Origin: a virus
Taxonomy: Duplodnaviria; Heunggongvirae; Uroviricota; Caudoviricetes
Virus record (IMG/VR): IMGVR_UViG_3300021431_000002
Length of the DNA: 64,000 bases
Reading direction: 5' to 3' (one strand)
Shown here: positions 3,268 to 42,740 of the stretch, piece by piece
How positions within the stretch are numbered: the first letter of the stretch is position 1
How the letters are laid out: every line of letters starts with the position of its first letter
Program-made: the position numbers and the translations under genes
Notes under the pieces: model-generated
Databases searched by the model: none
The model's input: only the letters and a program-made list of their open reading frames with translations
Told to the model about the DNA's origin: nothing

Positions 3268-3427
3268 CTTCTAAATCCATAACAAGACTTTCCAAAATGC
3301 TTAATTTCTCTTTATATATTGCTGTTTCCTTTGAAACATCAACTAGAGTTTGTTCCAATGACTTAACTTTGCTTTTCAAGTCATTATACTCTTTCATTGG
3401 TATCTCTATCCTTGCCATATTACCCAA
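3164..3427 (-). CDS. small coiled-coil protein (87 aa)
   Basis: ORF in track with heptad-like charged composition. Confidence 0.35.
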   Translation of the reverse strand: MGNMARIEIPMKEYNDLKSKVKSLEQTLVDVSKETAIYKEKLSILESLVMDLEDEGILNRIFSWKNIISPFKEVFKKDEKKQETKTT

Positions 3428-3995
3428 TATTGACTCTTTCTGAATTATTGATAAAGTTTATAACTTTTTCCTCCCCATCTTTTGTTATTGCTGGGCAAAA
3501 ATCAATAAGAACGTGGAAATTAACATTTGGAAATGCCCTTAAACCATCTTTCAATGAATCAAAAAGACACACGTCTAAAGCAATGCCAGCCAAATCAATA
3601 TCAGTTACTTTCATCATTTCACAAATATTACTAAGTAATGCATTAGACTTTTCATTCTTAAACACTGAATATTCCTCGTGGTCTTCATCGACCCCTTTAG
3701 TCAAGACAATATAGTCACTATTAATAGCGTTCAAAGCATCAATAATTGGCTGATAGATTGCTGCATCATGCGTATGTTGTACGCAATGTTCAGGCCATAC
3801 CCCACCGTTTGCCTTGAATGAACAATGTGTATGCGGATGCCAATCTGCTGTTAGAAATATCTTATCATATGCTGGACCGTTTTCACGTATAAATTCAGCA
3901 AGACGATTCATTTTATGGGTTGCACCTTCCACTGGAAGATTACCGCCCTCTAGAAAACCATATTGACAATCTATTAAAATCAAAATTTTATTCAT
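3420..3995 (-). CDS. pncA: nicotinamidase/pyrazinamidase (isochorismatase family)
   Basis: Motifs DCQYGF, ADWHPHTHCSF, EHCVQHTHDAAI, and the catalytic Cys region VTDIDLAGIALDVC. Confidence 0.7.
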   Translation of the reverse strand: MNKILILIDCQYGFLEGGNLPVEGATHKMNRLAEFIRENGPAYDKIFLTADWHPHTHCSFKANGGVWPEHCVQHTHDAAIYQPIIDALNAINSDYIVLTKGVDEDHEEYSVFKNEKSNALLSNICEMMKVTDIDLAGIALDVCLFDSLKDGLRAFPNVNFHVLIDFCPAITKDGEEKVINFINNSERVNIG

Positions 3996-4007
3996 AATTT
4001 ATTCTGT

Positions 4008-4502
4008 TTAATTATTATTATTTTCACATGCGACAGCAGCAGTGGTAAGATTTCCAACAATTTCTGCTATAGCATCATTTTTAATCTCTGCTTCTTTCTC
4101 AGCCTCTTTTGGTTTTTTGACCTCTCTTGACTTTGATGTTTTTTTGGTCTCTTTTGGTTTTTTGACCTCTCTTGACTTTGGTGCTTTTTTAACTTTAATT
4201 GTTTTTGATGTAGTCTTTTTTTGCGTTTCTTGAGTGTTTACAACATCATCAGTAGGCATTTCCACTGTTTCATTTAATGCCTCTGTATCAATAGTTTTTT
4301 CTTCATTATTGATGGTTGTTTTCTTTTCATTTGCTAACTCCTCAAGTTCTTTCATGAATTTCTCTTTTTCTTGTTTCACCTTATACTCAGTAATATCATA
4401 TGTAACACAAGAATTATGATATTTTTTCGCAAATAGGGTCATACAAGAATCAGTTTCTGTCTTAAGACCCTTGCAAGGACAGTTTTTACATAGTGTACCC
4501 AT
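4008..4502 (-). CDS. Cys-rich (CxxC) protein with a C-terminal basic KKPKE/SREVKKPK tandem repeat. Possible DNA-binding protein
   Basis: N-terminal CKNCPCKG...C...C. The C-terminal repeat is encoded by a DNA direct repeat at 4090-4200. Confidence 0.4.
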   Translation of the reverse strand: MGTLCKNCPCKGLKTETDSCMTLFAKKYHNSCVTYDITEYKVKQEKEKFMKELEELANEKKTTINNEEKTIDTEALNETVEMPTDDVVNTQETQKKTTSKTIKVKKAPKSREVKKPKETKKTSKSREVKKPKEAEKEAEIKNDAIAEIVGNLTTAAVACENNNN

Positions 4503-4624
4503 AGTTTTTCTTTTTTATGCAAATATACTAAAAATAATTTAAATATAAAAATATTATATTATATATTATATTTTATTAATATTATTTAATATATTATATT
4601 ATTATAATTAAAGAACCTAATGGG

Positions 4625-6031
4625 TCATACCGTTAGGCTCTTTAATTTATTTTCAACAATCTCAAATGCTTCATCTTTAGTCATATTAGGATTTTCAAAA
4701 TATGCTTCTTTAACAGCCTCTAAAAGTATTCCAATATTTGGTCCACTTTTTAAATGAAATTCCTTCAAAATATCGTCTCCAGAGATAGGAAGTTTAACAT
4801 TTGCTGCTTTTTCAGCATCTTCCATTTCCTCTATTCTATTGAGAATATCAAGAACTTGCCGTTTTTTCTTACCAAAGGTGCAATAAAGATTATTGGCGTT
4901 CATTAGGTCAGCAGTTGCCCCCAAATCATCACCAGTTAAGTTGATAAATTTTCTAATCTTCTTATCTGGCGGTAATACGCCATCGGCATAACTTGCAAAA
5001 CCTCTATGATGCTTAATGGCTGTTTCAACAGATTTGATGATATAATTAGGGTATTTCATGTCCTTCAAGTCGCTTGCAGCAATTTCTGCACTAAACTTAT
5101 CTGGCATCACATCCCTACGTTTCTCTGTTATAATTCTACCAACATCATGGAACAAAGCAGCCAATCTATTTTCAAGATATGGTTGAACAGTATCTAGCAC
5201 ATTCATTGTATGGTCAAATGTGCTAACCATAGGATTCCTTGACTCATAGGCGTAGGTTGTATCATAAATGTCTGGCATCACTCTATGCAAAATGCCACAG
5301 AAATACATTTTCCGAATACCGATACTTGGTTTTTCACAAAGTAGAATCTTGGATATTTCCTCACTGATTCTTTCTTGTGAAATGATTTGAATACGGTGCG
5401 CATTTTTAACCATCCCTAACCAAGTGTTTTTTTCAATATCCCAACCGAATCTAGTTGAAAAACGAATTACACGTAGGATTCTCAATGGGTCATCATTGAA
5501 CGTAACATCTGGGTCAGTTGGAGTCTTTATTACTTGATTTACTAAGTCATCTATAGAGCCGTTAAAATCATGTATTTTCTCTGTGCTGATGTTATAATAC
5601 AGAGAATTGATGGTAAGGTCACGCCTTTTTGCATCCTCTTCAAGACTTCCGAATACAGTTTCTGGGTTTCTGCTTTCCTTGTGGTACTGTTCCTTTCTAG
5701 TTTGGACACATTCAATCTCTATATCTTTGAATTCATCGTTCTTGAACAATTGGAACTTCGCAGTTCCATAGTTTTCAAACACTACTGGATTAGTATTCTG
5801 AATAAAACACTGGTGTTTTATTGCCATATATACAGCAAACAGCATTCCACCGTTTTTCATTTCAACAACGATGTCAATGTCTTTAATGGGTAATCCTAAC
5901 AATGCATCACGCACACAACCGCCAACTAAATATACTTTCCCTTCAAAATGGGTGTTTTTGATTGACGCTTGTATGAGGTCAACTAAGTGTTTGATTCTAT
6001 CATCAACTTTTTTAAATAATAGTTCGTTCAT
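4625..6031 (-). CDS. cca: CCA-adding enzyme / tRNA nucleotidyltransferase (PolyA_pol head domain plus HD domain)
   Basis: GGCVRDALLGLPIKDIDIVV head-domain signature. FHDVGR HD motif downstream. Confidence 0.75.
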   Translation of the reverse strand: MNELLFKKVDDRIKHLVDLIQASIKNTHFEGKVYLVGGCVRDALLGLPIKDIDIVVEMKNGGMLFAVYMAIKHQCFIQNTNPVVFENYGTAKFQLFKNDEFKDIEIECVQTRKEQYHKESRNPETVFGSLEEDAKRRDLTINSLYYNISTEKIHDFNGSIDDLVNQVIKTPTDPDVTFNDDPLRILRVIRFSTRFGWDIEKNTWLGMVKNAHRIQIISQERISEEISKILLCEKPSIGIRKMYFCGILHRVMPDIYDTTYAYESRNPMVSTFDHTMNVLDTVQPYLENRLAALFHDVGRIITEKRRDVMPDKFSAEIAASDLKDMKYPNYIIKSVETAIKHHRGFASYADGVLPPDKKIRKFINLTGDDLGATADLMNANNLYCTFGKKKRQVLDILNRIEEMEDAEKAANVKLPISGDDILKEFHLKSGPNIGILLEAVKEAYFENPNMTKDEAFEIVENKLKSLTV

Positions 6032-6032
6032 T

Positions 6033-7070: not shown

Positions 7071-7835
7071 TTAACCATTATTGATTGAGCATTCAAAAAT
7101 GGTAACTAAATCATTTGGTTTGAGACCTTCCACGAATCTAGAATAGAATTCATTTATCCATTCTTTTTCATCCCCAGAGGAATCTACGTCAACCCATCCA
7201 TTTTCATCTGCATAGGCATAGTTCCAATATGAAGTGCTATAGGTGACATAATCCTCTTTTGACTTGAAATTACTGAAATAGGCTTCTTTATCCTTCATTG
7301 ATTCGTAAATGGTCTTCTCTTGGTCGTTTTGCGGCTCTCTACCATCTACCACAAGTTCCCAAGCTGCTTCATATACCTCTTTGTTAGCACCATTCATTGC
7401 ATCCCAATCAATATCTTTAGCCAATGCACTATATGATTCACTGCCATCTTTTAGTTTAAGAGGAATGCAGAAATTTCTTCCAATCCTACAAGTATTATAT
7501 TTGACGTATGGGTTTTCGTCTGATAATGCATCACCATTTTCATCATAGTACATACCATCGGTAAGTTCTCTGTAGTATTCAAATGGAGATAGTTTTTTGA
7601 TGGTGTCTAGCCTATCTTCCACAGCCTCTTTGGTTATTGGTAAATCTATTTTGTCAATATTTGCTAATATGGTATCAAGTGTTTTAATTGCGGTATCTTG
7701 ATATTTTTTAGCGTTTAGGTATTTGTATTTTACATATGGTTCTGTTTTGTATTCAGAACCATATTTTTCCACTATGCTTTTAGGGTTTTCACCGACAACC
7801 ATCAACGAATAAAATTTACTATTGGTTTGTGCCAT
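7071..7835 (-). CDS. hypothetical protein (254 aa)
   Basis: ORF in track. Confidence 0.5.
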   Translation of the reverse strand: MAQTNSKFYSLMVVGENPKSIVEKYGSEYKTEPYVKYKYLNAKKYQDTAIKTLDTILANIDKIDLPITKEAVEDRLDTIKKLSPFEYYRELTDGMYYDENGDALSDENPYVKYNTCRIGRNFCIPLKLKDGSESYSALAKDIDWDAMNGANKEVYEAAWELVVDGREPQNDQEKTIYESMKDKEAYFSNFKSKEDYVTYSTSYWNYAYADENGWVDVDSSGDEKEWINEFYSRFVEGLKPNDLVTIFECSINNG

Positions 7836-9255
7836 TTTCTCCTCCTACATCTATTGTTAATGCTTCTCTAGGAACTCCAGTTATTGCGTTAAGGTCTCCT
7901 CGCAATCTTTCATAGGTCGCTTCAACAGTTGCTATATTATCTTCAGCTATAGCATAACGTCCAGGTTGTTCCCAATAATGTACCACACTAGGACCAAAAT
8001 ATGGTACTCCATTCATTTCATCAGCATTACCGCCAATCTCTTGCGCTGTTTCAATATTTGGATTTGCCATTTCAAAATCTTCCTCCACTTCTCTTTCTTC
8101 ATTATCTTCAGCAGGACCATCTTCATCAGTTTCTTCATCAGCATTGCCAAAAATAGCATCATTAGTAAAAGCATCCCTAAAATTCCCTATTGTTGATGAA
8201 ACGGTATAATAACTTTTTTTATCTATCGAAAATTCATTTTCTTTAAGCTGTTTAGAAAAGTCGATGTTAAAGTAGTCTGCTGCTGCGTTATTAAAGTTGA
8301 AAAACTGAAACGAGCACAATGACTGAAATAAAATGTCGTTAATTACGGATTGATTGGATTCATCAAACCTACTATAAGTCCAGATATAAGGTTTGCTTTT
8401 ACTTTCAATCATTCTATTATATATTTTATCCATTACCACTCTTTCATCGTTAAGGTCATTTAAAAGAGTCTTATCTTTTGTGACCCAAGGGCTTTTCTTG
8501 AAAGCGTTTGTTCCTGGATATGCGAATGATGGCGAACTAGGCGTAATAATACAAGATATTTTATATTCGGAAAGTATTTCATTTATCCCATCTTCATCAA
8601 ATCTCATACGTTCATTTACCCAAAACATTTTTTTACCTATTCTTTTTTCTTGCTCAGATTTCCAAAGCCTATCCAATGAAACTTGACCACCGATACATAA
8701 ACAGTTGAATTTGTTTAGTTTAACCACAGAATAATCTTGAATAGTTTTCACATTACTAAGATTAAGTAATTCATCCGTAAAATATTTGGGGTCATCATTA
8801 CCTCTCACAAATAGGATATGCGTGTTATTATCGGCTAACACATCATTTAGCATATTAAATTTGTCATAATAATATTTCAAATCGTTTTGACCAAATGTAT
8901 TTGAGCCATTGACAATTAACACTGCGTTATCTAAAGAATAGCCACAATATTTTGGATGTTTGCTCATTTTGTTTACACACCTTCTAATGGTATTGCCATG
9001 TTGGTCACGAGGTTGTGGAATACCGCCACCTATGCCAAATGGGTTGTGTATACCACCAAATAATGATTGGGTCTCTTCTTCTTGTTTTCTTCTAATCCTT
9101 TCTTGTCTTTCTATTTCTTTTGGGTGCTGCTCAACTTTATATTTACTTATGTTGGTTAGACTTCCAACAATCATTTTAACAAAACGGTCAACGTTCCCAT
9201 TAATGCTTCCGCATATTAAACAAGTCTTGATTTTACCATAATCATAAATTTTCAT
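7819..9255 (-). CDS. putative calcineurin-like metallophosphoesterase
   Basis: GSINGNVDRF (GDxxDRG-like) and ILFVRGNDD (GNHD/E-like) motifs. Adjacent to cca and the ligase. Confidence 0.35.
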   Translation of the reverse strand: MKIYDYGKIKTCLICGSINGNVDRFVKMIVGSLTNISKYKVEQHPKEIERQERIRRKQEEETQSLFGGIHNPFGIGGGIPQPRDQHGNTIRRCVNKMSKHPKYCGYSLDNAVLIVNGSNTFGQNDLKYYYDKFNMLNDVLADNNTHILFVRGNDDPKYFTDELLNLSNVKTIQDYSVVKLNKFNCLCIGGQVSLDRLWKSEQEKRIGKKMFWVNERMRFDEDGINEILSEYKISCIITPSSPSFAYPGTNAFKKSPWVTKDKTLLNDLNDERVVMDKIYNRMIESKSKPYIWTYSRFDESNQSVINDILFQSLCSFQFFNFNNAAADYFNIDFSKQLKENEFSIDKKSYYTVSSTIGNFRDAFTNDAIFGNADEETDEDGPAEDNEEREVEEDFEMANPNIETAQEIGGNADEMNGVPYFGPSVVHYWEQPGRYAIAEDNIATVEATYERLRGDLNAITGVPREALTIDVGGENGTNQ

Positions 9256-9399: not shown

Positions 9400-11505
9400 T
9401 TATGCTTTTGTAAGCTCTAATTCTAATTCCTCTTCTTCTGCTAAAGCACCTACTTTCTCAGTAGTATACTTTCCGAATATTGAGTCAGTTGGCTTTATGT
9501 ATTCGTCCAAGTTAATACCGAATTCTTTTGCCAAACTTTTATCCTCTTTTCTTATTTTCAAATCTGGTCGTTGTCCAAGAACTTTAAGTGCCTCAAGGTT
9601 GTTGTTTCTGATACAATTACCAACTGCTGTGCAATCAAAATCGTTAACAACGTTTACATCAACGTTTTTATTGGAAACTAGCTCTTTTACAATCCATACC
9701 TCATTTGTGTACTCACAAGCAGTATTAAGAGCGCAATCGTTATTGATGTCTTTTGCTGCAAGATTAAAGTTTTTACTAGAAAGGATTGACTTAATCATAT
9801 TAGTCAATATCTTGTTATCCTCTTCTGAACTTGCAACCTCATCACTTCCATGCAAATAGATTAATGACTGAAGCAAAGTTTCGCCAAAACCATCCTCAAT
9901 TTGTGAGTTGAATCCATCACAATTAACAATAGTGTCAAAAAGTTTGAACATTTTGTTAGTTATTGCTGAGAAAACAGGGATTCTCTGGTTAAATTCGTAG
10001 TTAACATTAATATTACCACGTTCTTTCTCAATCAACTTGATAGCCCCAATCTCATCGTTCTCATCAATGAGTTTGTGAAGAAGGATTGATGGGTCAATTG
10101 CCTCACGATTTAGATACTTATCCGTAGAAATACCAATTTTTGATAAATATCCTTCTTTTGAAATTTCAGCACCAAAAATGTCATACATCACAGACAAAGA
10201 CAATGTGCCATACATATCCTTGCGATATTGCATTGCAATAAGTGACCTTTCATTGTTTATTGGGAGGTTAAAATCCATAAACAAATAGGTTTTGTTGTTA
10301 TTGTCAATGGAGTTGAAATTGTTGGTTTTGATGAAAGTCTTTTTAACAAAATCATTGAACACTCTAGAGTTAAGGACATTTATAATCAAACGTCCATCAC
10401 CCTCATATGCAATAGCAAATGATTCTGGAGATTTTTTGACCATTGCTATCATATCGGTAATGTTCCAAGAGAATCCTAGTTCTTTAGGCAAACGCATGAA
10501 AGTGCTCATTTTAATGCCGAAATTATCGAACACATTATAAATACTTAGATTTTCGTTGCCTTGTCTATAAGGATTAATCATTGAATAGTTATGGCAAGTT
10601 TGTGCTTCAACAATGCCAGTTCCACCCTCAACAGTAAAACCAATGTGTGCAAATGCATCACTTTCTTTTCTGCTAAAGTCGAACAAGAAATACTGACTAC
10701 GATTCGCCTTACTTGTTACATAACTCTTGAAATACGACTCTTCACGAGCGATACACCAACCAGTACGTCCATTACCGCATAGTTTATGACTAGATTGGAA
10801 CGATGGAACATAAACAACTACACAAGGACCTTCGTTGAAAACCACTTCGCAGTCTTTTGCATTGTGTTCTATATAAGCAAGAAGGTCTTCTTTACCCTCT
10901 TTCCAATCATAAGTTCTATTGAGGCAATCTAGAATTGCTTGATGGAGTGATGCAGCGTTTTTAAGAGCAGAACTACTGCTGTAGAACTTGTTCTTAATAT
11001 TCATAGGTTTTTTATTGAACGTCTTGAAAACATCATACCATTTCTTAATGTTTGCATTCTCATACGCCTCAATTGGAGTGTATTCCTTACCCAAAATAGA
11101 TTCAGTCAGAATCTTTTTCTGCTCTGTATTGAAATGAGAGATAATATTCTTAACAAAAGCAATACGCTCAAGACCCTTAATCTCTTTAAGTAATTGGGCA
11201 ACTCCACTTTTATTAGAGTATGATACAACATTCTTCTTTTCGAGCTTGTTAATCATGTTACTGTTGGTAGTAATCCAAGTGTGAATGGTTTCCAACTCTT
11301 CAAAGGTCATTGACTGAGAGAATATCATTCTAACAGCCCAAATCTGGTAGTTTGACTGACCATCGAACATTTCACATACTTTAATAAATAATTTGTTAGT
11401 CTCTGGATTGATGCCATACTTATCAATCAAAGGCTGCATCTGTTTTTTATTATAAGTCATGTTTAATAAAAGAATTAAATTTGTTTTTTCCGTTTGTTTG
11501 TGCAA
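9400..11505 (-). CDS. large hypothetical protein (701 aa). Paralog of 11823..14282 with an ankyrin-like C-terminus
   Basis: Shared core with 11823..14282: DKYGxNP, WCI, YFLFDFS...IGFT. C-terminal repeats resemble ankyrin (GNCIRNNNLEALKVL). Confidence 0.6.
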   Translation of the reverse strand: MHKQTEKTNLILLLNMTYNKKQMQPLIDKYGINPETNKLFIKVCEMFDGQSNYQIWAVRMIFSQSMTFEELETIHTWITTNSNMINKLEKKNVVSYSNKSGVAQLLKEIKGLERIAFVKNIISHFNTEQKKILTESILGKEYTPIEAYENANIKKWYDVFKTFNKKPMNIKNKFYSSSSALKNAASLHQAILDCLNRTYDWKEGKEDLLAYIEHNAKDCEVVFNEGPCVVVYVPSFQSSHKLCGNGRTGWCIAREESYFKSYVTSKANRSQYFLFDFSRKESDAFAHIGFTVEGGTGIVEAQTCHNYSMINPYRQGNENLSIYNVFDNFGIKMSTFMRLPKELGFSWNITDMIAMVKKSPESFAIAYEGDGRLIINVLNSRVFNDFVKKTFIKTNNFNSIDNNNKTYLFMDFNLPINNERSLIAMQYRKDMYGTLSLSVMYDIFGAEISKEGYLSKIGISTDKYLNREAIDPSILLHKLIDENDEIGAIKLIEKERGNINVNYEFNQRIPVFSAITNKMFKLFDTIVNCDGFNSQIEDGFGETLLQSLIYLHGSDEVASSEEDNKILTNMIKSILSSKNFNLAAKDINNDCALNTACEYTNEVWIVKELVSNKNVDVNVVNDFDCTAVGNCIRNNNLEALKVLGQRPDLKIRKEDKSLAKEFGINLDEYIKPTDSIFGKYTTEKVGALAEEEELELELTKA

Positions 11506-11822: not shown

Positions 11823-14282
11823 TTAACGGAATGTTACCGTATAGGTTGGCATAGTTACAAATGCGCTAGAAATGAAATCTTCATGCTCTTTCTTTGACTT
11901 TAAAGCACTTTCATAGACTGGTTTAATCCATTCATACTTATCAGCAAGTTTTTTAATTGCTTCTTGCATTTCTTCATCACCATATCTAACGAAATAGTTA
12001 ACGATATATGACGGTGAATCCTTTTTACTAGACATATTCAAATTATTAAGCATCATAAACATGAACTCTTTTATAAGGCCTCCACTAAGGCCTGAGTTGA
12101 AAATGTTACTCAATAATTTTACATAGGCGATATTGAAATCCATTTTGTTACTGTTGTTTTCACTACCCAAGATACGTTTTATCAAAAGATAATAGCCGAC
12201 ATAGATGACATCTTCACGATTAGGTATCTTTTCGTCATAGAACAGATGTATTCTCTCTTCACTAGGTTTTTCAAGAATCCCATTCCTATACAACTGTCTA
12301 GCAGCACTTTTCAGATAGTTAAACAAGTTCTTCAGTAATTCAGCAATATGTGAGGAATCCATATACTCTACAAGATAATGACCGTTGTCATATATCAAAT
12401 CTAGATAATCGAAAGACAAATAATCTACAAGTGACGAATTGATGTAGGAATAGTTATTTCCGATGTCAAAATATTCATGCATTGCCCTGTGCAAGCAATT
12501 TTTATCAACCTTTATGCATTCCTTTAACATCTTAGTATTAAACGATGTATAAGCATTCCTTACTTTTTTGTCAATGTCATCAGTCCTTCTGATAATATCG
12601 TAAGGTACACCAAACTCAATCAGCTTGCCATCGAAACTAGCGCGTGTCTGGGTAGATGACTCATTGAATACGTTGCTTGGGTAATCTTCCCCACAACCAC
12701 CGTCGTATATTATGGAAAACAGCAATTTATTTGAATCATATTGGCTGATAGAAAAATCGGCAAATATGATGTGCTGTAACTCATAATCATCTGACGAAAT
12801 ATTATCCATATAGGCATCACCTAACAAATATTTGATGTTCTCATCACGGACAGAGAGTACTAGTTTATCTCCATCGTGTTTGATTATGTCAACATTGTTT
12901 TTATCAACGCATTCGTAAAGGTACGACATGAAATGGTCATAATCCCACTGATATTGAGGTCTGTCATAATGTGCAACAAGTGTTATGTCAATACCACAAT
13001 TTTGTAGCACACTATATATGCTATTCCTACCGTTAAATCTAGCCAAATATGATTTGAGCATAATTGCGTTAGGATTGTTACCAGCATCCATTAGATTGTC
13101 GTTAATGAAATTATGCGCTGATGTAATGCCTTTGTTGTGCGTGGTTGTAAATCCAATAATGGATAGTTTATCATCCTCTAACTTTGAGAAATCAAATATC
13201 ATATACTGGGTAGATTTACCATGAGTGTTACCGACATATTGATTCCAATATGTTTTGTTTTTAGAAATACACCAGTTAGTAGTCTTACCCAACTGTTTTA
13301 TCGTGTCGTAGTCATCAACTTTAACCAAGACTACATAATCGTTTTCAAATATTACCTTGTAATTAATTCCCTCTACATTATTGATGAAATCCATAAAGGA
13401 ATCTTTGTTCCAGTCAAAATGAACACTTGTCACATGCCTCATCTGACGCATAAGTTCATTGAAATCATCAATCGTGGATACTTTCTTAATGAAATTTATC
13501 TTTTTTATCTCTGAAAGTTTAGAGAATCTTGCAAGGGTTTTTTTATCGGTGTCAGATAATTCGTTGTTTCTCAACAATTTTTTCTGAGCCGTGTTAAATT
13601 CGTTAATCGCATCACCAACTCTCTTCTCATTCCTTAATACTGACAGCTCTTCCATAAGGTCGTTTATATTACTCTGTGTGGTATACGCAGTTATTGTGCC
13701 CTTAGAAAGTTTCTTAGTCAATTGTTTATAGTATTCATTCCATAATAAGATATTATGTATGGTTCTCATAGAGCAATGCGCCTTGAAGTATACATCAACA
13801 GCCCACTGGAAAAAATTCTTAGAGCCATCGGTATATATGTACAATCTCTTGCATTGTATATCATTTGGGTTTAAACCATACTTATCTGAGAGGCTTTTAA
13901 TCATTTTTGCATTTTCTTTCAAAAATGCTTGATAATCCTTATCAAATGATTTTGGCAATAGAGTGATTTCAGTCAAAACATTAGCATAATCGCCAAACCC
14001 ATTTGATGTTTTACTAACCTCTAGTAACCTAGGATGGTTAATGCATTGTAAATCATTCGCAATCTCTTTCGAAAGACTAGCCAAAGCTGAAGTTCCGAAG
14101 TTGTGATTATTAAACCAATTATTGAAAATGAACATTTTTTCACCAATCTGTGAATTTGGGTTTGTCTTTAAAACCTCACAAATGTCAAAACCATGTTCTC
14201 CAGCCCTAACTAAAATCTTTCTAAGAGAGTAATCAGACACCCTAAACAAGTGTCTGATTCCTCTTATATTAGTACCTATCAT
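11823..14282 (-). CDS. large hypothetical protein (819 aa). Paralog of 9400..11505
   Basis: Shared motifs: LSDKYGLNP, TTNWCISKNKTYW, YMIFDFSKLEDDKLSIIGFTTTHNKGITSAHN. Confidence 0.6.
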   Translation of the reverse strand: MIGTNIRGIRHLFRVSDYSLRKILVRAGEHGFDICEVLKTNPNSQIGEKMFIFNNWFNNHNFGTSALASLSKEIANDLQCINHPRLLEVSKTSNGFGDYANVLTEITLLPKSFDKDYQAFLKENAKMIKSLSDKYGLNPNDIQCKRLYIYTDGSKNFFQWAVDVYFKAHCSMRTIHNILLWNEYYKQLTKKLSKGTITAYTTQSNINDLMEELSVLRNEKRVGDAINEFNTAQKKLLRNNELSDTDKKTLARFSKLSEIKKINFIKKVSTIDDFNELMRQMRHVTSVHFDWNKDSFMDFINNVEGINYKVIFENDYVVLVKVDDYDTIKQLGKTTNWCISKNKTYWNQYVGNTHGKSTQYMIFDFSKLEDDKLSIIGFTTTHNKGITSAHNFINDNLMDAGNNPNAIMLKSYLARFNGRNSIYSVLQNCGIDITLVAHYDRPQYQWDYDHFMSYLYECVDKNNVDIIKHDGDKLVLSVRDENIKYLLGDAYMDNISSDDYELQHIIFADFSISQYDSNKLLFSIIYDGGCGEDYPSNVFNESSTQTRASFDGKLIEFGVPYDIIRRTDDIDKKVRNAYTSFNTKMLKECIKVDKNCLHRAMHEYFDIGNNYSYINSSLVDYLSFDYLDLIYDNGHYLVEYMDSSHIAELLKNLFNYLKSAARQLYRNGILEKPSEERIHLFYDEKIPNREDVIYVGYYLLIKRILGSENNSNKMDFNIAYVKLLSNIFNSGLSGGLIKEFMFMMLNNLNMSSKKDSPSYIVNYFVRYGDEEMQEAIKKLADKYEWIKPVYESALKSKKEHEDFISSAFVTMPTYTVTFR

Positions 14283-16409: not shown

Positions 16410-16928
16410 TTAATCGTTCTTCTTTAAAACATGGAAGCAGAACTGAGTTCCATTACCTTGCAACATTGATTTGTAATAGGTTCGCCATTCCTTTTCATCA
16501 AACTCTGGAAAAAATGTATCTCCATCATCATCATCTTCCACAATAGTTAACCTTAACTCGTTGACAAGGTTTCTCTCCATAAACTGACGGTATATCTCAC
16601 CACCACCGATTACGAATAGTTCCTTATCAGAGAAAAAAGCGTTACACAATTCGATAACGTCATCAATTGAGTTTACAATGTATACGTTATCGTATTCACC
16701 ACTTACTCCAAAATCTCTAGAAGTCGTAAGAATAATGTTTATCCTATCCTTCAGAGGCACACCATTGGGAAGGGATTCGAAAGTTTTTCTACCCATAATG
16801 ACAACTCCATTATGTTTAGTCATCCTAGCAAAATTATTAATATCGTTATCTATCCGATACAATAATTTACCATTTTTTCCAATTACTTGTTTTCGATTCA
16901 TACAAGCAATAATAATAAATTTAAGCAT
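16410..16928 (-). CDS. folA: dihydrofolate reductase
   Basis: IGKNGKL, VIMGRKTFESLP, PLKDRINIILT and FVIGGGEIY signatures. Start trimmed to the Met that aligns with the DHFR N-terminus. Confidence 0.8.
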   Translation of the reverse strand: MLKFIIIACMNRKQVIGKNGKLLYRIDNDINNFARMTKHNGVVIMGRKTFESLPNGVPLKDRINIILTTSRDFGVSGEYDNVYIVNSIDDVIELCNAFFSDKELFVIGGGEIYRQFMERNLVNELRLTIVEDDDDGDTFFPEFDEKEWRTYYKSMLQGNGTQFCFHVLKKND

Positions 16929-17526
16929 ATATAATATTATTTTGGTTATAAATGTTTTTATAAATTCTATCACTAAAAATATTGTATTTTTTTACTATTG
17001 ATTCCCTAATATAATATTTTAATTTAATTCCGTGTGCTTCACAAATTTCTTTTTTTCTTAAGTCTCTTTCTATTTCGTTTTCTAAAGAACTTGTAAAAAA
17101 ACTAGATTCAATAAAATGCTGTATTCCTTGACACTCGATAGCCACATTTTCTTTATCCAAATAAAAATCCACACTTTGATTACCAAGAATACCGCCAATA
17201 TTACTATACCTTTCATTAGAAATACCCATTCCGTTTAGAATCAATAGTATTTCATTTTCTAACGTACTATTTTTACAATCTGGACACCCTTGACCTCTTA
17301 AATGTGCTGAAGGTATCTGCCAAAATTCGCCATGCTCTGGACATATTATGCACACTTTTGTCTCATTATTTATATATTCTACTTTAGAATAGTCATACTT
17401 ATCACCATGAACTTTTTTAGCATCATTAATAAAGGCATCTAATTTTTTTTTCAATTTATTTGCTGCATTTTTTCTACCGCAAATTGGACATCCTTGACCT
17501 TGAAGATGATTTATAGGCTGCTGCAT
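16921..17526 (-). CDS. putative HEF-like homing endonuclease (duplicated zinc ribbon plus a PD-(D/E)xK-like C-terminus)
   Basis: Duplicated HLQGQGCPICG / HLRGQGCPDCK motifs. VDFYLDKENVAIECQGIQH. The 3' end overlaps the DHFR start. Confidence 0.4.
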   Translation of the reverse strand: MQQPINHLQGQGCPICGRKNAANKLKKKLDAFINDAKKVHGDKYDYSKVEYINNETKVCIICPEHGEFWQIPSAHLRGQGCPDCKNSTLENEILLILNGMGISNERYSNIGGILGNQSVDFYLDKENVAIECQGIQHFIESSFFTSSLENEIERDLRKKEICEAHGIKLKYYIRESIVKKYNIFSDRIYKNIYNQNNIIYA

Positions 17527-17660: not shown

Positions 17661-17993
17661 TTAATATACTTTAACATCTAAAATCGTGCGCCATAACATT
17701 TCGCTAAAAAGTTTGTTTACAACTTTTTCATATTTATAATTTTCCAAATCTTCTAGCATTGGATATTGTTTTTTCAATGCTGTCGGTTTTTCATTAATTG
17801 GATATGCAATTTTGATTTTTATTGGTTTCAAATTATCCTCCGTATAATTATTTCCATATGGATTTATATCATATGAATAATACGCAGTAACCTCTTCAAC
17901 ATCGTAATGATTCATTGCAATAAGGTTTTCGCATTTCCAATCTTCTAATTCAATTTCGATTTTCATCTTTCCAGTAGCAATATAAACAGCCAT
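17661..17993 (-). CDS. hypothetical protein (110 aa)
   Basis: ORF in track. Confidence 0.4.
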   Translation of the reverse strand: MAVYIATGKMKIEIELEDWKCENLIAMNHYDVEEVTAYYSYDINPYGNNYTEDNLKPIKIKIAYPINEKPTALKKQYPMLEDLENYKYEKVVNKLFSEMLWRTILDVKVY

Positions 17994-28530: not shown

Positions 28531-29148
28531 CTACTTCCTTAAAATCAAAAGGTTACGTTTGTAATCAATAGAAATATCGTCACCTAGTTTTTTTAAAACG
28601 CTCATACCTAATAGTAAAGGAGCGTCTTGCTGTTCCATAACAACGCAAGGTATGTTATTAATCTTTATGCCTCCTACTTCTACCTCATTTATAATGATTG
28701 TATAAGACTTTACCGTATCTCCATTGGCAATTCTACATTGACCACTCTCTAGAGTTGAATCATTGAGTAATTTTTGCTTTTTTAAGAACAAATACTCAAC
28801 AACAGAAATAGAAATGTCGGTAGCACCAGTATCCAATGTCATTATCATCGGTATTCCGTTGATTTTAGTGGGAACAAGGTAGCAATTATTCTCATGCTGT
28901 AGTTTGACCGCTAATTTAAAATCATTTGGAACTTGTTTCAAAACCTTTGTGGTATCAGTCTTTGGTATTGTATCCGATTTGACAATCTGAACCACTGTGG
29001 TCGTGTCTTTTTCGATTCCTAACGCCTTGGCTTCTAATGTATCATATGCTCTAGGAAATAGTTTAGAGAACGCCCAAATGAATCCCATCACTATTATAAC
29101 CCCTAAAAAAAGTTTGGTGATACAACCAGATAATGTTATTTTTTTCAT
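28531..29148 (-). CDS. retropepsin-like (clan AA) aspartic protease with an N-terminal membrane anchor
   Basis: MTLDTGATDISIS active-site motif (D-T-G-A). N-terminal transmembrane helix. Confidence 0.6.
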   Translation of the reverse strand: MKKITLSGCITKLFLGVIIVMGFIWAFSKLFPRAYDTLEAKALGIEKDTTTVVQIVKSDTIPKTDTTKVLKQVPNDFKLAVKLQHENNCYLVPTKINGIPMIMTLDTGATDISISVVEYLFLKKQKLLNDSTLESGQCRIANGDTVKSYTIIINEVEVGGIKINNIPCVVMEQQDAPLLLGMSVLKKLGDDISIDYKRNLLILRK

Positions 29149-31585: not shown

Positions 31586-32410
31586 TTATCGTCTGACATT
31601 CCACATTTGGCTAGCGTTACCACCAACTAGCACATCAATATTAGCGCCTTGTTTTGCAGCAATAGTTTCAATCCACTTAAGACTGATGAAATCTTGTGTA
31701 CTCAAACCAAGTTCCTCACGATATGCCTTATCAGCCTTTGCCCTCTGACGTTCAGCCTTTTCACGAGCCAACTGTACCTCTGCCTCACGCTCTTGAGTCT
31801 GCTTTGCTTGCACAGCCTTTGCAGTCTTGTTCATTTCAGCCAACTGTTCCTTATTAGGCATAGCCTTACCAATGGTAACTTGTTTTACGACAACTGGAAA
31901 CTCTTTCTCCTTGGACAACTTTGCCACATAATCTTGCATCTGCTTAAGCACCTTTGCGTCAATTTCATTGAGGATTGCACGATTACTCATAAGGTCAAAA
32001 GGACTATGCTGAGAAATATGGTCACGTACCAAGTTGCAGTAATAGTTATACAAGTTAGTATTGAACCAATCTACACCATAATTCTGCAACAGAATAGGAG
32101 ACTTACCCTTCTCAATCTGTGTGATGATAATGGTATGGAAATCCAACGGTGTGTTGTCATCAGAGAACAAATCGTCCATATCAACTTGATGTTTGAACGG
32201 AACAATCTTAAATGTCTCAGAAGACGTGCTCCACCAAACCCACGTCAAACCTGTCTGTACTGGAGTCATGTCAATACCACCATGTCCAAAAAACCAAGGC
32301 TTTTCAATGAGAACTGATTCCTCATCAGCCCCTGGACGCACACCATGACAACTTGTCATACTAGCCATTGCTACAACAGCAAGCGAAAATACTACTAAAA
32401 ATTTCTTCAT
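31586..32410 (-). CDS. lipoprotein with a possible SPFH/band-7-like C-terminus
   Basis: MKKFLVVFSLAVVAMASMTSC lipobox. C-terminal charged coiled region. Confidence 0.35.
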   Translation of the reverse strand: MKKFLVVFSLAVVAMASMTSCHGVRPGADEESVLIEKPWFFGHGGIDMTPVQTGLTWVWWSTSSETFKIVPFKHQVDMDDLFSDDNTPLDFHTIIITQIEKGKSPILLQNYGVDWFNTNLYNYYCNLVRDHISQHSPFDLMSNRAILNEIDAKVLKQMQDYVAKLSKEKEFPVVVKQVTIGKAMPNKEQLAEMNKTAKAVQAKQTQEREAEVQLAREKAERQRAKADKAYREELGLSTQDFISLKWIETIAAKQGANIDVLVGGNASQMWNVRR

Positions 32411-33866: not shown

Positions 33867-34235
33867 TCAGTATTTTTGTTTAGATTGAATTACACCTCTC
33901 ACACCCCCTCTTGGGTCTTCGCAATCACCATTATATCTAGGTATAATGTGTATATGGCAATGCATAACGGTTTGTCCAGCAGCCTCGCCACAATTCACCC
34001 CTATGTTATAGCCATTTGGCTGGTATTTAGAATCAAGTATTTCTTTAACGTGGTCAACTGCACTAGCTAGAGCACCCAATTCCACTTGGTTTAAATCAAA
34101 ATATGTTTCACAATGCCTTTTGGGAATTAATAGGGTATGTCCTTTCGAAACTGGATAACCATCTGAAATAGCCACCCATAAAGAATCTTGATAGATTATT
34201 CTATCTTCTTTGATACCACAAAATACACAGCCCAT
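33867..34235 (-). CDS. HIT-family (histidine triad) hydrolase
   Basis: HCHIHIIPR histidine-triad motif. Confidence 0.75.
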   Translation of the reverse strand: MGCVFCGIKEDRIIYQDSLWVAISDGYPVSKGHTLLIPKRHCETYFDLNQVELGALASAVDHVKEILDSKYQPNGYNIGVNCGEAAGQTVMHCHIHIIPRYNGDCEDPRGGVRGVIQSKQKY

Positions 34236-34735
34236 TATTCTTCAGCAGTAATGCGTTTAACTTCAACTATAAGAGCGTCTAAAGCAGATTCAATTACAGT
34301 TTCAATATTTTGACCTCGCAGACCATCTACTTGTATTTTGCTATATTTAAAATCTACTTTCTTATCTGTCATTGTTGCTATACAAATCCAAACGACATTA
34401 TGAGTCTCCTCATTAAAGTCTTCCGTAGGTGATACATTACCAACCACCGCAACACAAATATCTGTATCTAACTTATAAAGACCATTTAAAGCCATTTGGC
34501 AAGCCACTTGGGAACTTACAAGCCCATTGTTTTTTATTGCGTTAGATGACACATCTAACAGTTTTTCCATGTGAGGCTGGTCAACAACAACTATTGTTCC
34601 GCAATAAACTGTATCTAGTCCACACATACTTGATATGGATGCGCCAAGTAAACCACTAGTACAATGTTCTACTGTGCCAATCGTTAAGTTTGAATTAAGT
34701 AACTCTACGCCCAATACCCTTAATTTATCCTTCAT
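34235..34735 (-). CDS. CinA C-terminal / PncC-like NMN deamidase
   Basis: TVEHCTSGLLG matches the AESCTGG motif. VAVVGNVSP matches the SISGIAGP region. Confidence 0.55.
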   Translation of the reverse strand: MKDKLRVLGVELLNSNLTIGTVEHCTSGLLGASISSMCGLDTVYCGTIVVVDQPHMEKLLDVSSNAIKNNGLVSSQVACQMALNGLYKLDTDICVAVVGNVSPTEDFNEETHNVVWICIATMTDKKVDFKYSKIQVDGLRGQNIETVIESALDALIVEVKRITAEE

Positions 34736-38847: not shown

Positions 38848-38863
38848 ATGTTAATTGTTTAAG

Positions 38864-38973
38864 TGGAGTATTGGAGATTCGAACTCCAAGAGGTCTTATG
38901 TTTCCCGCCTCTCGTATGGTCTTCTTATGCATGAAACCGACCAGCAGGTCACCACCCAACGTGTTTATACCCC
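38864..38973 (-). tRNA. 110-nt tRNA-like gene with an internal insert (palindrome TTATGCATAA)
   Basis: Acceptor GGGGTAT/ATACTCC spans 110 nt. T-arm TGGAG-TTCGAAT-CTCCA. Confidence 0.3.
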
Positions 38974-40185
38974 ATGAGAATTACTTATTGCAGGGACTGA
39001 CGGATTCGAACCGCCATCGTTTATTAACAGTTAAAGGCACACTCTGTTCCGAGGTCGAGAGTGCTTTATTCCTTAAAGCGCAACAAATTACTTTACCATT
39101 AAGCTAAATCCCTATATAAATACAAAAGACTGAGAATGTTGTCTTATTGTTAATGCCATTTTACAAGCGTTGGAACTTGCTATTCACACGTCACCTTACG
39201 ATGAACGTAGACATCATGCACGGAAGTCTTGAGAAGACAACCAAGAATCTTACTAGTTTAAACCTTGCGGTGCAGCATCATAGCTTTCAGTTCTTCGCCA
39301 AGCTCTTGCGGATTCATAGGATGCCTCCTATTAACTCAGACGAGTACTTTTACACGCTCATTGAATTCCTTGCGAGTCCTCAATGTCTCAATATTTCATG
39401 AGAATAAGTGCATTTTAGCTGCCTAGTGTCGCACACTTTTGCTTAAATTGATTTTTGAATCATATTTATGTTCCGTAGGCGGTTTGGAAGACGAGGTGCG
39501 ACTAAGGACATCTGTAACTTTTGGCTACAGCCCATCCAATCGCCTCCCTGTGCTAGCTCACCACAAGCTATTCACTATTATACACCATCACCTCATATGA
39601 GTTCTTACACATTTCTATGTAAGACTAGTGCATAACTGAGTACAACACGCCAACTGGTGATTATTGCATCATACTCCATACAGTAATCTATCGTGTCACC
39701 ACTCATTCAAAGATTCCTCACCCTTGAAAATATACAACTTTGGTGTTACCCACATTGTATACCGTACTGTATGCTTTTCAGTGAAATACATGAGAGTTTC
39801 TCATATATCTGCAACGTTTACCGCTAGTACACGTCACATTTATCCCATCACTGGATTATCCTTCCATCTGGCTACGAAAGCTAGCCATTAGCCTCATATC
39901 TTTCGCAAGATATTTCCTCATGGAAATTGGCTTATTTCTTGAGTTTTTCATTCGTTTTCAGTTTATTATAATAGGTAAACTGCTTCCTCTTTAGAGGTGG
40001 GTTCATATCCCAAGCTCCTATTTTTTAGCCCTACATCGAATTTTTTTACCCAATACTTACTTTTTTCTAGTACACGTTCTCTAGAATATGGTTCCCGAAG
40101 TTACCATTGCTATGGATTGTTTAACCACATAAAACCCATTTTTACCGTTGTCTACGGCACGAAAAGGCATATCTCGTTGGTTAGA

Positions 40186-40320
40186 GCAGATTTGCACTGC
40201 TGAAGCTTCCGAAGAAACACATCAAGCACGAACTTGATGCCCATTTGTCTACATCGTCATTGCTGACGTTCTCCTCTGGTACTAACCAAAAGGTGGTTTT
40301 TTGACTTGTCCACCACAAGG
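40186..40320. repeat. about 135-bp direct repeat, copy 1 (copy 2 at 40481..40620)
   Basis: gatttgcact..gaag..tccgaaga..cacatcaagcacgaacttgatgcccatttgtctacatcgtcattgctgacgttctcctctggta..ccaaaaggtggtttttt. Contains the CATCAAG/CTTGATG hairpin. Confidence 0.7.
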
Positions 40321-40480
40321 TATAGTGTGTAGTATTGTAAAGGCTAATTCATTTTGCAGAACTAATTTAATGGTAAAGGACATCTGCTATGTTTCATACA
40401 GTTGTGTGTTTGTCGCAACCTCACTTTCCTCGCCAACCTTTACTGCCGATTGCACCTGAGCGTTTATACTACATTTGTTG

Positions 40481-40620
40481 GTAGAGCTAGATTTGCACTA
40501 GCGAAGACTCCGAAGAGCCACATCAAGCACGAACTTGATGCCCATTTGTCTACATCGTCATTGCTGACGTTCTCCTCTGGTATCTACCAAAAGGTGGTTT
40601 TTTAACTTGCCCACCACAAG
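40481..40620. repeat. about 135-bp direct repeat, copy 2
   Basis: See 40186..40320. Confidence 0.7.
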
Positions 40621-40625
40621 AATAG

Positions 40626-40698
40626 TTGCGGCAGTAGGAGTCGAACCCACTGTTACTAGGTTATGAGCCTAGTGTGTAAACCGTTTCACTCTGCCACG
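40626..40698 (-). tRNA. tRNA(CAU), Met or Ile2 type, with C1:A72
   Basis: Acceptor CGTGGCA/TGCCGCA. Anticodon arm CTAGG-CTCATAA-CCTAG. T-arm GTGGG-TTCGACT-CCTAC. Confidence 0.6.
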
Positions 40699-40803: not shown

Positions 40804-40842
40804 TGCAAAGATATGAAAAATATTTTTAATATCCAAATTTTT
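40804..40842 (-). promoter_or_regulatory. Bacteroidetes-type promoter
   Basis: tgcaaagata at 40804-40813 and ccaaatttt at 40833-40841. Confidence 0.6.
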
Positions 40843-41111
40843 TAAGATTTCTTTGCATTTTTGGCGAAATACTCTTTGAGTTTAGCCCATTCTGAAAGGA
40901 TGGTACTATATTCATCGGCACTAAGTAATACTTCCTCTTTGCCATGCTCAATACTATCTGCTTGCCCCCTAAGTTTATCAACTAAATTGATTTTAAGAGC
41001 CTCATAATATTTTACGCTAACAATATTAGTAGCTTCTCCTTTGCTATACCCAGCCTCTTGAAGGTTTTTATATAGTTCACTTCTGAAATCTTTATCTAAA
41101 ATTTTACTCAT
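40842..41111 (-). CDS. hypothetical protein (89 aa)
   Basis: ORF in track. Confidence 0.4.
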   Translation of the reverse strand: MSKILDKDFRSELYKNLQEAGYSKGEATNIVSVKYYEALKINLVDKLRGQADSIEHGKEEVLLSADEYSTILSEWAKLKEYFAKNAKKS

Positions 41112-41133
41112 TGTATGTCTTTTTCTTTAACAG

Positions 41134-41171
41134 TGCAAAAATATACAAAATTTTTGAAAGTTCCAAATTTT
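41134..41171 (-). promoter_or_regulatory. Bacteroidetes-type promoter (variant -7 TATTTTTGCA)
   Basis: tgcaaaaata and ccaaatttt boxes. Confidence 0.5.
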
Positions 41172-41191
41172 AAGCGATTTTTTTAAAGATT

Positions 41192-41452
41192 TTAACATCT
41201 TCCTTCATATAAATCATCATAATTGGTTTTACCTCTTTTGAATATTGTAATATTTTTTGCGTCTTGGAAAAGACACCAACCAATTACTGACAAACATATT
41301 CCCACGATAACGCCAATGCTTAACCATGACAATAAACCACATACAAATGCAGCAATCAAATCAGCAAGAGTTACGACTCTAAATTTTGGGCATCTAACAG
41401 CTAGTGTTAGAAAAAACGCAACAATGCATCCAATAAAATAAATACTTCCCAT
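41192..41452 (-). CDS. small membrane protein (86 aa)
   Basis: Hydrophobic helices. Confidence 0.4.
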   Translation of the reverse strand: MGSIYFIGCIVAFFLTLAVRCPKFRVVTLADLIAAFVCGLLSWLSIGVIVGICLSVIGWCLFQDAKNITIFKRGKTNYDDLYEGRC

Positions 41453-41965
41453 AACTAAATTGTTTTTTTACTTTAAAAATAATCAGCTACACGAACCTCT
41501 TCAATGTACTTATGAAAGATTCCCTTCCATACATGTTATACAGATTAACGCATGACTTATATCCTAATATAGCCTAACTTTACTGTAAAAGTTTACTTCA
41601 TCATCCAACCCTGACTGATTATTTAGTGGACTTGCGCAGAGTCGAACTGCGGTCCAAACAACCATTCCATAAGAAATTATACAAGCTTTGATTTGGAAAG
41701 TTGACAGCAAACGCTGCCCTCACCGCTACCTTATTTTGCGAAAACAAGGAAAACTATACAAAGATGACTAAAGAATAATGCTAGGGTGTTCTGTTCCTAA
41801 GAGCCTAGCCTCTCGGCTTACATTACGCAGCTATAGCGTACTCGTAAGCAGGAGAATCAACATTCTCGCCAGTTATATTTTTTGCTATTGAAGTGTATGC
41901 CCACTGCTTGTTTCTTACCAAATGCATTGCTGTCAAATCCATTACAAGCCCATGATAAAAAATTG

Positions 41966-42039
41966 TCGAGAGGGTAGGACTTGAACCTACGACCTTCATC
42001 TTATCAGGATGACAATCTAACCAACTGATATACCCCTCG
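41966..42039 (-). tRNA. tRNA-Ile(GAU)
   Basis: Acceptor CGAGGGG/CCTCTCG. Anticodon arm TCATC-CTGATAA-GATGA. T-arm GTAGG-TTCAAGT-CCTAC. Confidence 0.8.
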
Positions 42040-42179
42040 ATAAGCTAGTTTGTGGAATTCCGATTCTTCACCACACAAGTTTCACTAGACCTCCTAATGT
42101 TATATGCGTCCGTTATAGGATACCAACGTTATACGCTTGCCAATTTATTTATCGTACTGCGGAACTAGCTATATTCCTA

Positions 42180-42740
42180 TTACACGTCTTTAAATGCTTC
42201 AATAAAATGTTTCAAAATCATTGCATTTTCTATGACGCAAGTCGGAACTGCTTCTCTAAGGCTTTCAACATCCTCTTTCAAAATCATTTCTCTTACTTTC
42301 GTAGCAGAAAGACTATTATGGATAGTTCCTCTTGCATTAAGTTTGAATGATACGAAATCTCTCGTAATGAAAGGTGGAAACCACTGCATAATTATCTCAA
42401 AACCATCAGAGTAATATATTGTAAACTCTGGAGATTTTGTAAACCCAACAATGTGGCTATAGAGATAAAAACCCCAATCATGAGAATTGTCCGATTCATC
42501 TGTAAGGTCTGCTAATGGTTGTATTATAACCCTTTTAGAGTCCTCTTTAAATGCCTCTTCTATCGCCTTATTAGCGAGTTCCAATCTCATGGCAATTGGT
42601 ATTGGATTCCTTTTATTGAGTTTATCAGCAGAACCAACGAGCAGAAGAACATTTTCATTCTCGTTTAGTGCTTGCCGTATTAACTCAAGATGCCCTTTAT
42701 GTATGGGCTGTATTCTTGCAATGATAACACCTACTGCCAT
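42180..42740 (-). CDS. nadM: nicotinamide-nucleotide adenylyltransferase (NadM-like cytidylyltransferase fold)
   Basis: ARIQPIHKGHLELI matches (H/T)xGH. ISATKVRE matches the ISSTxxR motif. Confidence 0.7.
   Translation of the reverse strand: MAVGVIIARIQPIHKGHLELIRQALNENENVLLLVGSADKLNKRNPIPIAMRLELANKAIEEAFKEDSKRVIIQPLADLTDESDNSHDWGFYLYSHIVGFTKSPEFTIYYSDGFEIIMQWFPPFITRDFVSFKLNARGTIHNSLSATKVREMILKEDVESLREAVPTCVIENAMILKHFIEAFKDV

Follow-up and report, generated by a model that had tools for sequence, protein, structure and literature searches.

Depletion of NAD+ is a common bacterial defence against phages, and a 64,000-nt stretch of the viral record IMGVR_UViG_3300021431_000002 (IMG/VR; Caudoviricetes), referred to here as the window, raises the question of whether a phage can rebuild this cofactor with enzymes of its own. 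An earlier note on this DNA had assigned five open reading frames (ORFs) to NAD metabolism, namely a nicotinamidase, a Nudix hydrolase, a HIT protein, a CinA-C/PncC-like nicotinamide mononucleotide (NMN) deamidase and an NMN adenylyltransferase (NMNAT). All five were recovered exactly where it had placed them, on the minus strand, and each scores above the Pfam gathering score for the family named. The deamidating route that it proposed is real at the level of genes and is fuller than claimed, with PncB and NadE added from the flanking DNA; the CinA-like and HIT proteins, in turn, fall outside it. The phage probably covers the Preiss-Handler sequence from nicotinamide through nicotinate, nicotinic acid mononucleotide (NaMN) and nicotinic acid adenine dinucleotide (NaAD) to NAD+ with its own predicted enzymes; as all four steps are encoded, the set would form a complete deamidated branch.

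Exact-protein look-ups placed three proteins of the window on a phage contig of 407,876 bp (ENA ERZ12302815 NODE_9), to which the window belongs; subtracting a window position from 182,985 gives the position on the contig. Flanks fetched for both ends overlap the window by 11,979 and 11,605 nt with 0 mismatches and are therefore its true neighbours. The sequence examined comprised the window and 10 kb on each side, ~84 kb of a ~408-kb genome, and Pfam scans covered 45 of the larger window ORFs plus the flank genes.

Candidate enzymes for the steps from nicotinamide to NAD+

The first gene of the proposed route reads as a nicotinamidase (nicotinamide to nicotinate and NH3) rather than a generic isochorismatase. 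All seven PDB matches of the protein are nicotinamidases/pyrazinamidases or direct homologues, led by PncA of P. horikoshii (PhPncA; PDB ID: 1ILW, E 9.5e-20). Its D9, K100 and C143 align with the catalytic triad D10/K94/C133 of PhPncA, the Zn ligands D52/H54/H71 have their counterparts in D51, H53 and H70, and I138-A139 aligns with the oxyanion-hole cis-peptide V128-A129, the roles of the triad, the Zn ligands and the cis-peptide Ala being those described for PhPncA (PMC3025910). With triad and metal site kept, the nicotinamidase named in the earlier note stands. The protein scores 61.7 bits against the NCBIfam equivalog NF008623, below the cut-off of 174, and is thus a divergent member.

Neither PncB nor NAMPT had been seen in the window, which is literally true by Pfam scans of its larger ORFs, and for PncB this absence is an edge effect: the gene starts 60 nt outside (Table 1). 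The encoded protein passes the TIGR01514 equivalog (333.7 versus 269.55), all six of its PDB matches are nicotinate phosphoribosyltransferases (NAPRTs; best P. gingivalis NAPRT, PDB ID: 2IM5, 9e-70), His225 lies within a GTMSHQ motif, and it is the sole NAPRTase-family protein in the ~84 kb. A gene for a NADAR-domain protein, which may strip ADP-ribose off bases or act on derivatives of ADP-ribose, lies 0.6 kb downstream. In five close IMG/VR relatives the layout is kept, with PncA ~3.5 kb upstream of PncB and NADAR in the same position.

On the opposite flank lies a gene for an NAD synthetase, NadE, which passes TIGR00552 (131.1 versus 63.65). It has the ATP-pyrophosphatase loop SGGIDS at residue 41 (SGGxDS), and the glutaminase domain is absent. 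Its 22 PDB matches are without exception NAD synthetases, the best being the enzymes of C. jejuni, S. avermitilis and H. pylori. The profile search for missing steps that the earlier note had suggested thus recovered PncB and NadE in the flanks and no Adps or Namat among the scanned ORFs or flank genes; Nampt, PRPS-like, Namat-like, PnuC and NadR proteins were likewise not found among the ORFs scanned in the ~84 kb. No hidden NAD enzyme was detected by PHROGs and Pfam in the large ORFs without matches (318, 254, 478, 819 and 454 aa, and others). In sum, genes for a predicted route from nicotinamide to NAD+ are present (PncA, PncB, an adenylyltransferase and NadE).

The adenylyltransferase gene encodes a NadM-type protein with the motifs H14-K-G-H17 (HxGH) and S145-A-T-K-V-R150 (SxTxxR), both invariant in 27 homologues. 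Its best NCBIfam matches are all NMNAT models, each under its cut-off (NF002243, 56.7 versus 127; TIGR01527, 48 versus 181). Searching the PDB with a profile of the 28-member family returned NMNATs as the top 15 matches (NadM, NadM-Nudix and NadR; 1.6e-12 to 3e-3), phosphopantetheine adenylyltransferase (PPAT) first appearing at 0.008. An AlphaFold (AF2) model with a pLDDT (predicted local distance difference test) of 87.7 matched the M. thermoautotrophicum NMNAT (E 2.7e-9) and Synechocystis NadM-Nudix (TMq 0.76) in Foldseek, with PPAT next and close behind. Motifs, profile and fold matches therefore point to NMNATs, in agreement with the earlier reading of this gene. The central substrate-binding region (residues ~80-140) fails to align with solved NMNATs; because this pyridine-nucleotide-binding middle does not align, a preference for NMN or NaMN is not readable, and we treat the protein as a candidate for the conversion of NaMN to NaAD and/or of NMN to NAD+.

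The NadM-like gene is found at 83-86% identity in near-complete ~410-kb relatives, which show similar spacing of NadE, NadM and PncB. No NadD-type gene was found in the ~84 kb examined. An alignment-based pattern search for NadD-type proteins in IMG/VR, which was not exhaustive, gave 117 matches, and the ~410-kb NadM-carrying relatives are absent from the best 80 of these loci, which suggests that NadM replaces NadD in the clade of the window; the corresponding single-protein pattern search returned the query alone.

The Nudix box of the window's Nudix hydrolase (G87-V109) is intact. Its PDB matches are generic, the Nudix portion of NadM-Nudix is matched only weakly (E 1e-5), and the substrate signal is not readable from them. 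Pro125 sits 16 residues past the box, a position that we take to be a marker of ADP-ribose pyrophosphatases. The protein is probably an ADP-ribose or dinucleotide pyrophosphatase.

On these assignments, the route would start from nicotinamide, the base freed on cleavage of NAD+ by ADP-ribosyltransferases or by the NADase effectors of defence systems. PncA would deamidate nicotinamide to nicotinate, and PncB would join nicotinate to phosphoribosyl pyrophosphate (PRPP) to give NaMN. An adenylyltransferase, for which the NadM-type protein is the sole candidate seen, would convert NaMN to NaAD, and the NH3-dependent NadE would amidate NaAD to NAD+. The Nudix hydrolase would most likely either cleave ADP-ribose to ribose-5-phosphate, which the host could convert to PRPP for PncB, or trim dinucleotide pools. 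We infer that the purpose would be to supply NAD+ during infection, including against NAD-depleting defence.

Linkage of the NAD genes in other phages

The grouping of NAD genes in phages is not a matter of chance. Among 50,697 GenBank phage records, PncB occurs in 13 and NadE in 51, and both occur together in 7, against ~0.013 expected; PncA occurs in 8, six of which also have PncB. In the 117-kb human-gut phage contig MT835470, the order is PncA, a 98-aa ORF, PncB, NadE, an AAA ATPase, an 85-aa ORF, a NadD-type adenylyltransferase (PDB matches all NadD) and Nudix, and the genes of the cluster are co-directional and partly overlapping. The 735-kb phage LR756501 has PncA, NadE and PncB within 8 kb. 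PncA-NadE-PncB-Nudix-NadD lie within 5 kb in an IMG/VR phage of 356 kb, the PncB of which shares 77% identity with that of the window phage, and several further contigs hold PncA, PncB, NadE, NadD and Nudix. The module occurs on many contigs of <200 kb.

Within 3-kb flanks of the NadD-type genes at the best 80 of the 117 IMG/VR loci, we found Nudix homologues at 71, NadE at 66, PncB at 50 and PncA at 27. The window Nudix is 52.7% identical to the Nudix of the MT835470 cluster, and homologues also lie inside the compact clusters L018, L037, L044 and L045. Because its homologues recur within the NAD clusters of other phages, many of them gut phage contigs with compact PncA-PncB-NadE-NadD-Nudix arrangements, Nudix is an accessory but regular member of the module, and its inclusion in the NAD set by the earlier note was sound.

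In a different group of jumbo phages, represented by many 230-400-kb IMG/VR contigs from sample 3300045988 (L046-L091), a gene for NadE (~41% identity) has a remotely PncA-like gene (23%) 0.5 kb behind it. No PncB lies within 10 kb of this NadE. These contigs may represent another arrangement of NAD genes.

Alternative readings of the gene set

Several points weigh against the four-step pathway. The NAD genes are dispersed over ~74 kb among tRNA and RNA-repair genes, with no single operon, and PncA and the NadM-like protein both score under their NCBIfam equivalog cut-offs. Use of NaMN by the NadM-like protein is putative, as the usual partners of NadM-type enzymes are NadV and NMN (PMC9503650). 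The 435-kb phage UViG_3300021256_000054 (L036, L111) has a NadD-containing cluster as well as a NadM-like gene, and the NadM-like gene is solitary in Bacteroides phage BS-TP1 and many 20-100-kb contigs, so that its product may belong to another branch. The search behind the apparent replacement of NadD by NadM was pattern-based, and 37 of its 117 matches fall outside the 80 considered. The sequence examined spans only ~84 kb of the 408-kb genome. Lastly, a counter-defence role is plausible but putative.

It is quite possible that the genes serve general auxiliary metabolism, feeding NAD consumers of the phage such as ligases, ADP-ribosyltransferases and dehydrogenases, rather than countering a specific defence; such a purpose is compatible with the Preiss-Handler route itself. 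The NADAR gene adjoining PncB fits this purpose, and the locus shows no pointer to a particular defence system. However, entry at nicotinamide and the conserved Nudix would fit recycling of both products of NADase cleavage, and the NARP1, NARP2 and NARP3 pathways show that rebuilding NAD defeats NAD-depleting systems.

We are more doubtful that the phage contributes PncA, PncB and NadE only, leaving adenylation to a host NadD while the NadM-like protein separately turns NMN, from NAD-dependent ligases or the host, into NAD+. This would agree with the solitary occurrence of the NadM-like gene, with no PncA, PncB or NadE near, in BS-TP1 and the short contigs, with its presence alongside a NadD-containing cluster in UViG_3300021256_000054, and with its distances in the window phage (39-43 kb from PncA/PncB, 30 kb from NadE and 21 kb from Nudix). 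Against such a division of labour, compact clusters nearly always pair an adenylyltransferase with PncB and NadE, suggesting that the step is supplied by the phage, and the sole adenylyltransferase found in the clade of the window is of the NadM type.

It is unlikely that the last two steps run in the established Francisella order, reportedly described by Sorci and colleagues in 2009 (cited in PMC7824862), in which NadE acts as an NMN synthetase (NaMN to NMN) and NadM then converts NMN to NAD+, so that no NaMN adenylyltransferase is needed. NadM and NadE are both present, with no NadD-type match in the 84 kb and no ~410-kb NadM relative among the best 80 of 117 NadD-type loci, and the phage NadE resembles the group of short NadE proteins that includes F. 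tularensis NadE (PDB ID: 3FIU, E 1.5e-18). Yet this NadE is matched best by the enzymes of C. jejuni, S. avermitilis and H. pylori rather than by that of Francisella, and the NadD search that this order leans on was pattern-based rather than exhaustive, with 37 of 117 matches outside those considered.

That all five original genes form one set, with the CinA-like protein as an NMN deamidase and HIT also active in NAD metabolism, is very improbable. The CinA domain match is clear (Table 1), some homologues are named 'PncC family amidohydrolase' by JGI, and the protein falls just under the PncC_domain cut-off (61.6 versus 68.9). However, pairwise and profile alignments place H24, M56, V51 and V98 at the positions of S31, K63, Y58 and T105 of Agrobacterium CinA (AtCinA), with an Arg retained (R140) at the likely position of R145. 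In AtCinA, the S31A, K63A, Y58A and R145A variants are inactive and T105A is impaired (PMC5384747). From 1.84 billion representative proteins scored with the CinA family profile, the 150 best were aligned. The canonical residues Ser, Lys, Tyr and Thr(Ser) occur in 136, 134, 136 and 134 of ~147 aligned sequences, whereas the ~14 nearest relatives in the phage clade have H/Q/C/A/E, M/L/I/A/Q, V/C/N/F/P and V at the same four columns. Twenty close homologues show almost no variation in EHCTSG. Since even the residue at the former nucleophile position differs within the clade, loss of catalysis appears more likely than replacement of the nucleophile. With the Ser/Lys dyad and the equivalents of Y58 and T105 replaced across the clade, we rejected the protein as a PncC/NMN deamidase and place it outside the pathway.

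The HIT protein has its HxHxH motif at residue 92. Its ORF shares a TAATG stop/start overlap with the CinA-like ORF, and the two genes are translationally coupled; HIT also adjoins the CinA-like gene in three relatives (L094, L095 and L097). Homologues of the two occur in none of the compact NAD clusters examined and are mutual neighbours only inside the clade of the window. HIT is thus a generic protein with no link beyond its CinA-like neighbour, and we rejected it as an NAD-metabolism gene too. It is decidedly unlikely, if conceivable, that the two act not in salvage but as a new counter-defence pair, a sponge for and/or a degrader of immune signals that derive from NAD or are nucleotides of another kind; the CinA fold and the phosphate-binding Arg are kept while all the catalytic residues are gone.

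That the NAD genes are unrelated pick-ups sharing a cofactor theme by chance in a very large genome can be all but dismissed: the dispersed layout would allow it, as would promoter and terminator scans, which gave no operon signal beyond shuffled controls and are uninformative on operons, but the genes cover four consecutive steps of one linear pathway, and the linkage of the same families in other phages, with co-occurrence far above expectation, contradicts it.

Neighbouring genes and relation to known systems

Table 1. Features of the window and its flanks. Coordinates are window positions unless L008 or L010 is given; these refer to positions in the two flanking loci.
Feature	Coordinates	Strand	Length	Support and remarks
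PncB nicotinate phosphoribosyltransferase	L008 12039-13262		407 aa	NAPRTase_N and NAPRTase domains; start 60 nt beyond window position 1
NADAR-domain protein	L008 13856-14362			TIGR02464, 147.6 bits; ~1.9-2.4 kb beyond window position 1
RNA ligase	1074-1979	minus		PF09414
PncA-type nicotinamidase	3420-3995	minus	191 aa	Pfam Isochorismatase, 32.9 bits, above gathering score
CCA-adding tRNA nucleotidyltransferase	4625-6031	minus		With HD domain
Dihydrofolate reductase	16410-16973	minus		
DUF1848 protein	17950-18723	minus		
Nudix hydrolase	20758-21363	minus	201 aa	Pfam NUDIX, 51.8 bits, above gathering score
Retropepsin-like aspartyl protease	28531-29148	minus		
SPFH/Band 7 protein	31586-32410	minus		
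HIT-family nucleotide hydrolase/transferase	33867-34235	minus	122 aa	Pfam HIT, 88.6 bits
CinA C-terminal-domain protein, degenerate active site	34235-34735	minus	166 aa	Pfam CinA PF02464, 82.9 bits versus 23.5
tRNA with CUA anticodon	36607-36698	minus		Amber suppressor type; ARAGORN label Pyl
tRNA-like	38991-39113	minus		123-nt Rfam match, may hold an insertion or intron
tmRNA	41624-41951	minus		Rfam, 78.8 bits; predicted tag peptide GENVDSPAYEYAIAA
NadM-type NMN/NaMN adenylyltransferase (candidate)	42180-42740	minus	186 aa	Pfam CTP_transf_like, 31.9 bits, above gathering score
OmpA-domain protein	58210-59238	minus		
tRNA-like, irregular anticodon loop	61962-62033	minus		ARAGORN '???', anticodon 'tt'
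NadE NAD synthetase	L010 374-1285		303 aa	TIGR00552; ~7.5 kb beyond window position 64000
RtcB ligase	L010 2126-3490			Just outside the window
TelA	L010 4520-5821			Flank

All long ORFs of the window lie on the minus strand, and the GC content is ~34%. A large tRNA island extends on the minus strand over window positions 23710-63928, with 31 tRNAs and a transfer-messenger RNA (tmRNA) predicted by ARAGORN and 35 tRNA matches plus the tmRNA by Rfam; it is interspersed with small ORFs and with HNH endonuclease genes (50174-51088 and 52660-53136). At 38850-40650, in a region that otherwise codes on the minus strand, ~1.8 kb lack any long ORF on that strand; apart from one tRNA-like match, this stretch has just short ORFs on the plus strand. 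The RNA ligase, the CCA-adding enzyme and RtcB make up a set for RNA repair in the surroundings of the NAD genes, which suggests a defence against tRNA-cleaving host nucleases. Pfam and PHROGs gave no family for four large minus-strand ORFs at 9400-11505 (701 aa, with ankyrin repeats), 11823-14282 (819 aa), 7819-9255 (478 aa) and 24632-25996 (454 aa). Because of the CUA-anticodon tRNA, stop-codon recoding was examined: reading TAG or TGA as sense raises the coding fraction of the window only a little, from 0.74 to 0.82 or 0.78, and yields no new long ORFs, and we kept the standard code. Recoding could still apply to late genes in other parts of the genome.

No close nucleotide relative was found among GenBank phages, a 15-kb megablast giving tRNA matches only. 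A host among the Bacteroidota of an animal gut is probable, since the best GenBank match of the NadM-like gene is a Bacteroides phage, the best solved relative of PncB is the Porphyromonas gingivalis enzyme, and Shine-Dalgarno-like sequences are absent at gene starts. The sample accessions are probably those of ruminant gut metagenomes.

The closest published counterparts are the NAD-jumbo phages of Li et al. (Microbiome, 2024; PMC11662467), who reported complete salvage or Preiss-Handler pathways in 174 of 668 animal-gut jumbo phages and a pncB-nadD-nadE cluster in Kuafu_71, with Bacteroidota as the predicted hosts of the main clade. They also mentioned pncA, and proposed NAD supply and counter-defence computationally, without experiments. 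The window phage shares with these a genome of >200 kb from metagenomes, pncB and nadE with an adenylyltransferase, and the same proposed roles; it would count as an NAD-jumbo phage (>200 kb, full pathway) provided that the NadM-like protein or NadE accepts NaMN. It differs in that Kuafu_71 has a compact cluster with nadD, whereas the genes here are scattered over ~74 kb with a NadM-type enzyme, and in a Nudix partner and a degenerate CinA-like gene that are not described in PMC11662467. The remark of the earlier note that the set differs from NARP1 and NARP2 holds for the ~84 kb examined, and the set is not NARP3 either, but its novelty was rated too high: Preiss-Handler sets in gut jumbo phages had already been reported. 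What is new is modest, namely PncA as the entry step, the dispersed NadM layout, the conserved Nudix partner, the occurrence on sub-200-kb contigs and the reading of the CinA-like protein as not PncC. We see the value of the analysis in a sharper parts list and in the correction of two mis-assigned genes.

Relative to the compact clusters of MT835470, L018, L037 and L044, the proteins are homologous (PncA 37%, PncB 35-77%, NadE 42-47% and Nudix 30-53% identity); those clusters are single, co-directional and of the NadD type, often on contigs of <200 kb, while the genes of the window phage are dispersed and of the NadM type. The families and the reaction order are also those of bacterial Preiss-Handler salvage (PncA, PncB, NadD, NadE and PncC), and the phage PncB is nearest a Bacteroidota enzyme. 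Here, however, a NadM-type protein replaces or supplements NadD, and the PncC homologue is without catalytic residues.

Three phage NAD pathways have been shown experimentally, NARP1, NARP2 and NARP3, the last defined in PMC13464706. Nicotinic acid, PncA, PncB and NadE go unmentioned in the NARP1/2 preprint, a phage PncA or NadE is likewise missing from the NARP3 paper (PMC13464706), and a 2022 survey of viral NAD genes covers NadV, NadM and NadR only, with NadV in every NadM phage (PMC9503650). NARP2, with NadV-NatV of KVP40 (Nampt and Nmnat-Nudix), resembles the proposed route in its start from nicotinamide, its NadM-family enzyme, its Nudix and the reconstitution of NAD+. It differs in being a two-step route that passes directly from nicotinamide to NMN through Nampt, whereas the window phage would proceed through nicotinate, NaMN and NaAD, with no Nampt in the 84 kb and with NadM and Nudix as separate genes. 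NARP1 (Adps and Namat) and NARP3 (PnuC and NadR) share with it the phage-encoded rebuilding of NAD+, but their chemistry is different and their genes were not found among the window-phage ORFs scanned. As none of NARP1-3 uses the deamidated branch, PncA, PncB, NadE, NadD/NadM and Nudix constitute a candidate fourth route that would recycle nicotinamide and perhaps ADP-ribose. It appears common in gut phages, contigs well under jumbo size included, and could bear on how well phages fare against Bacteroidota as well as on the gut's niacin/NAD economy.

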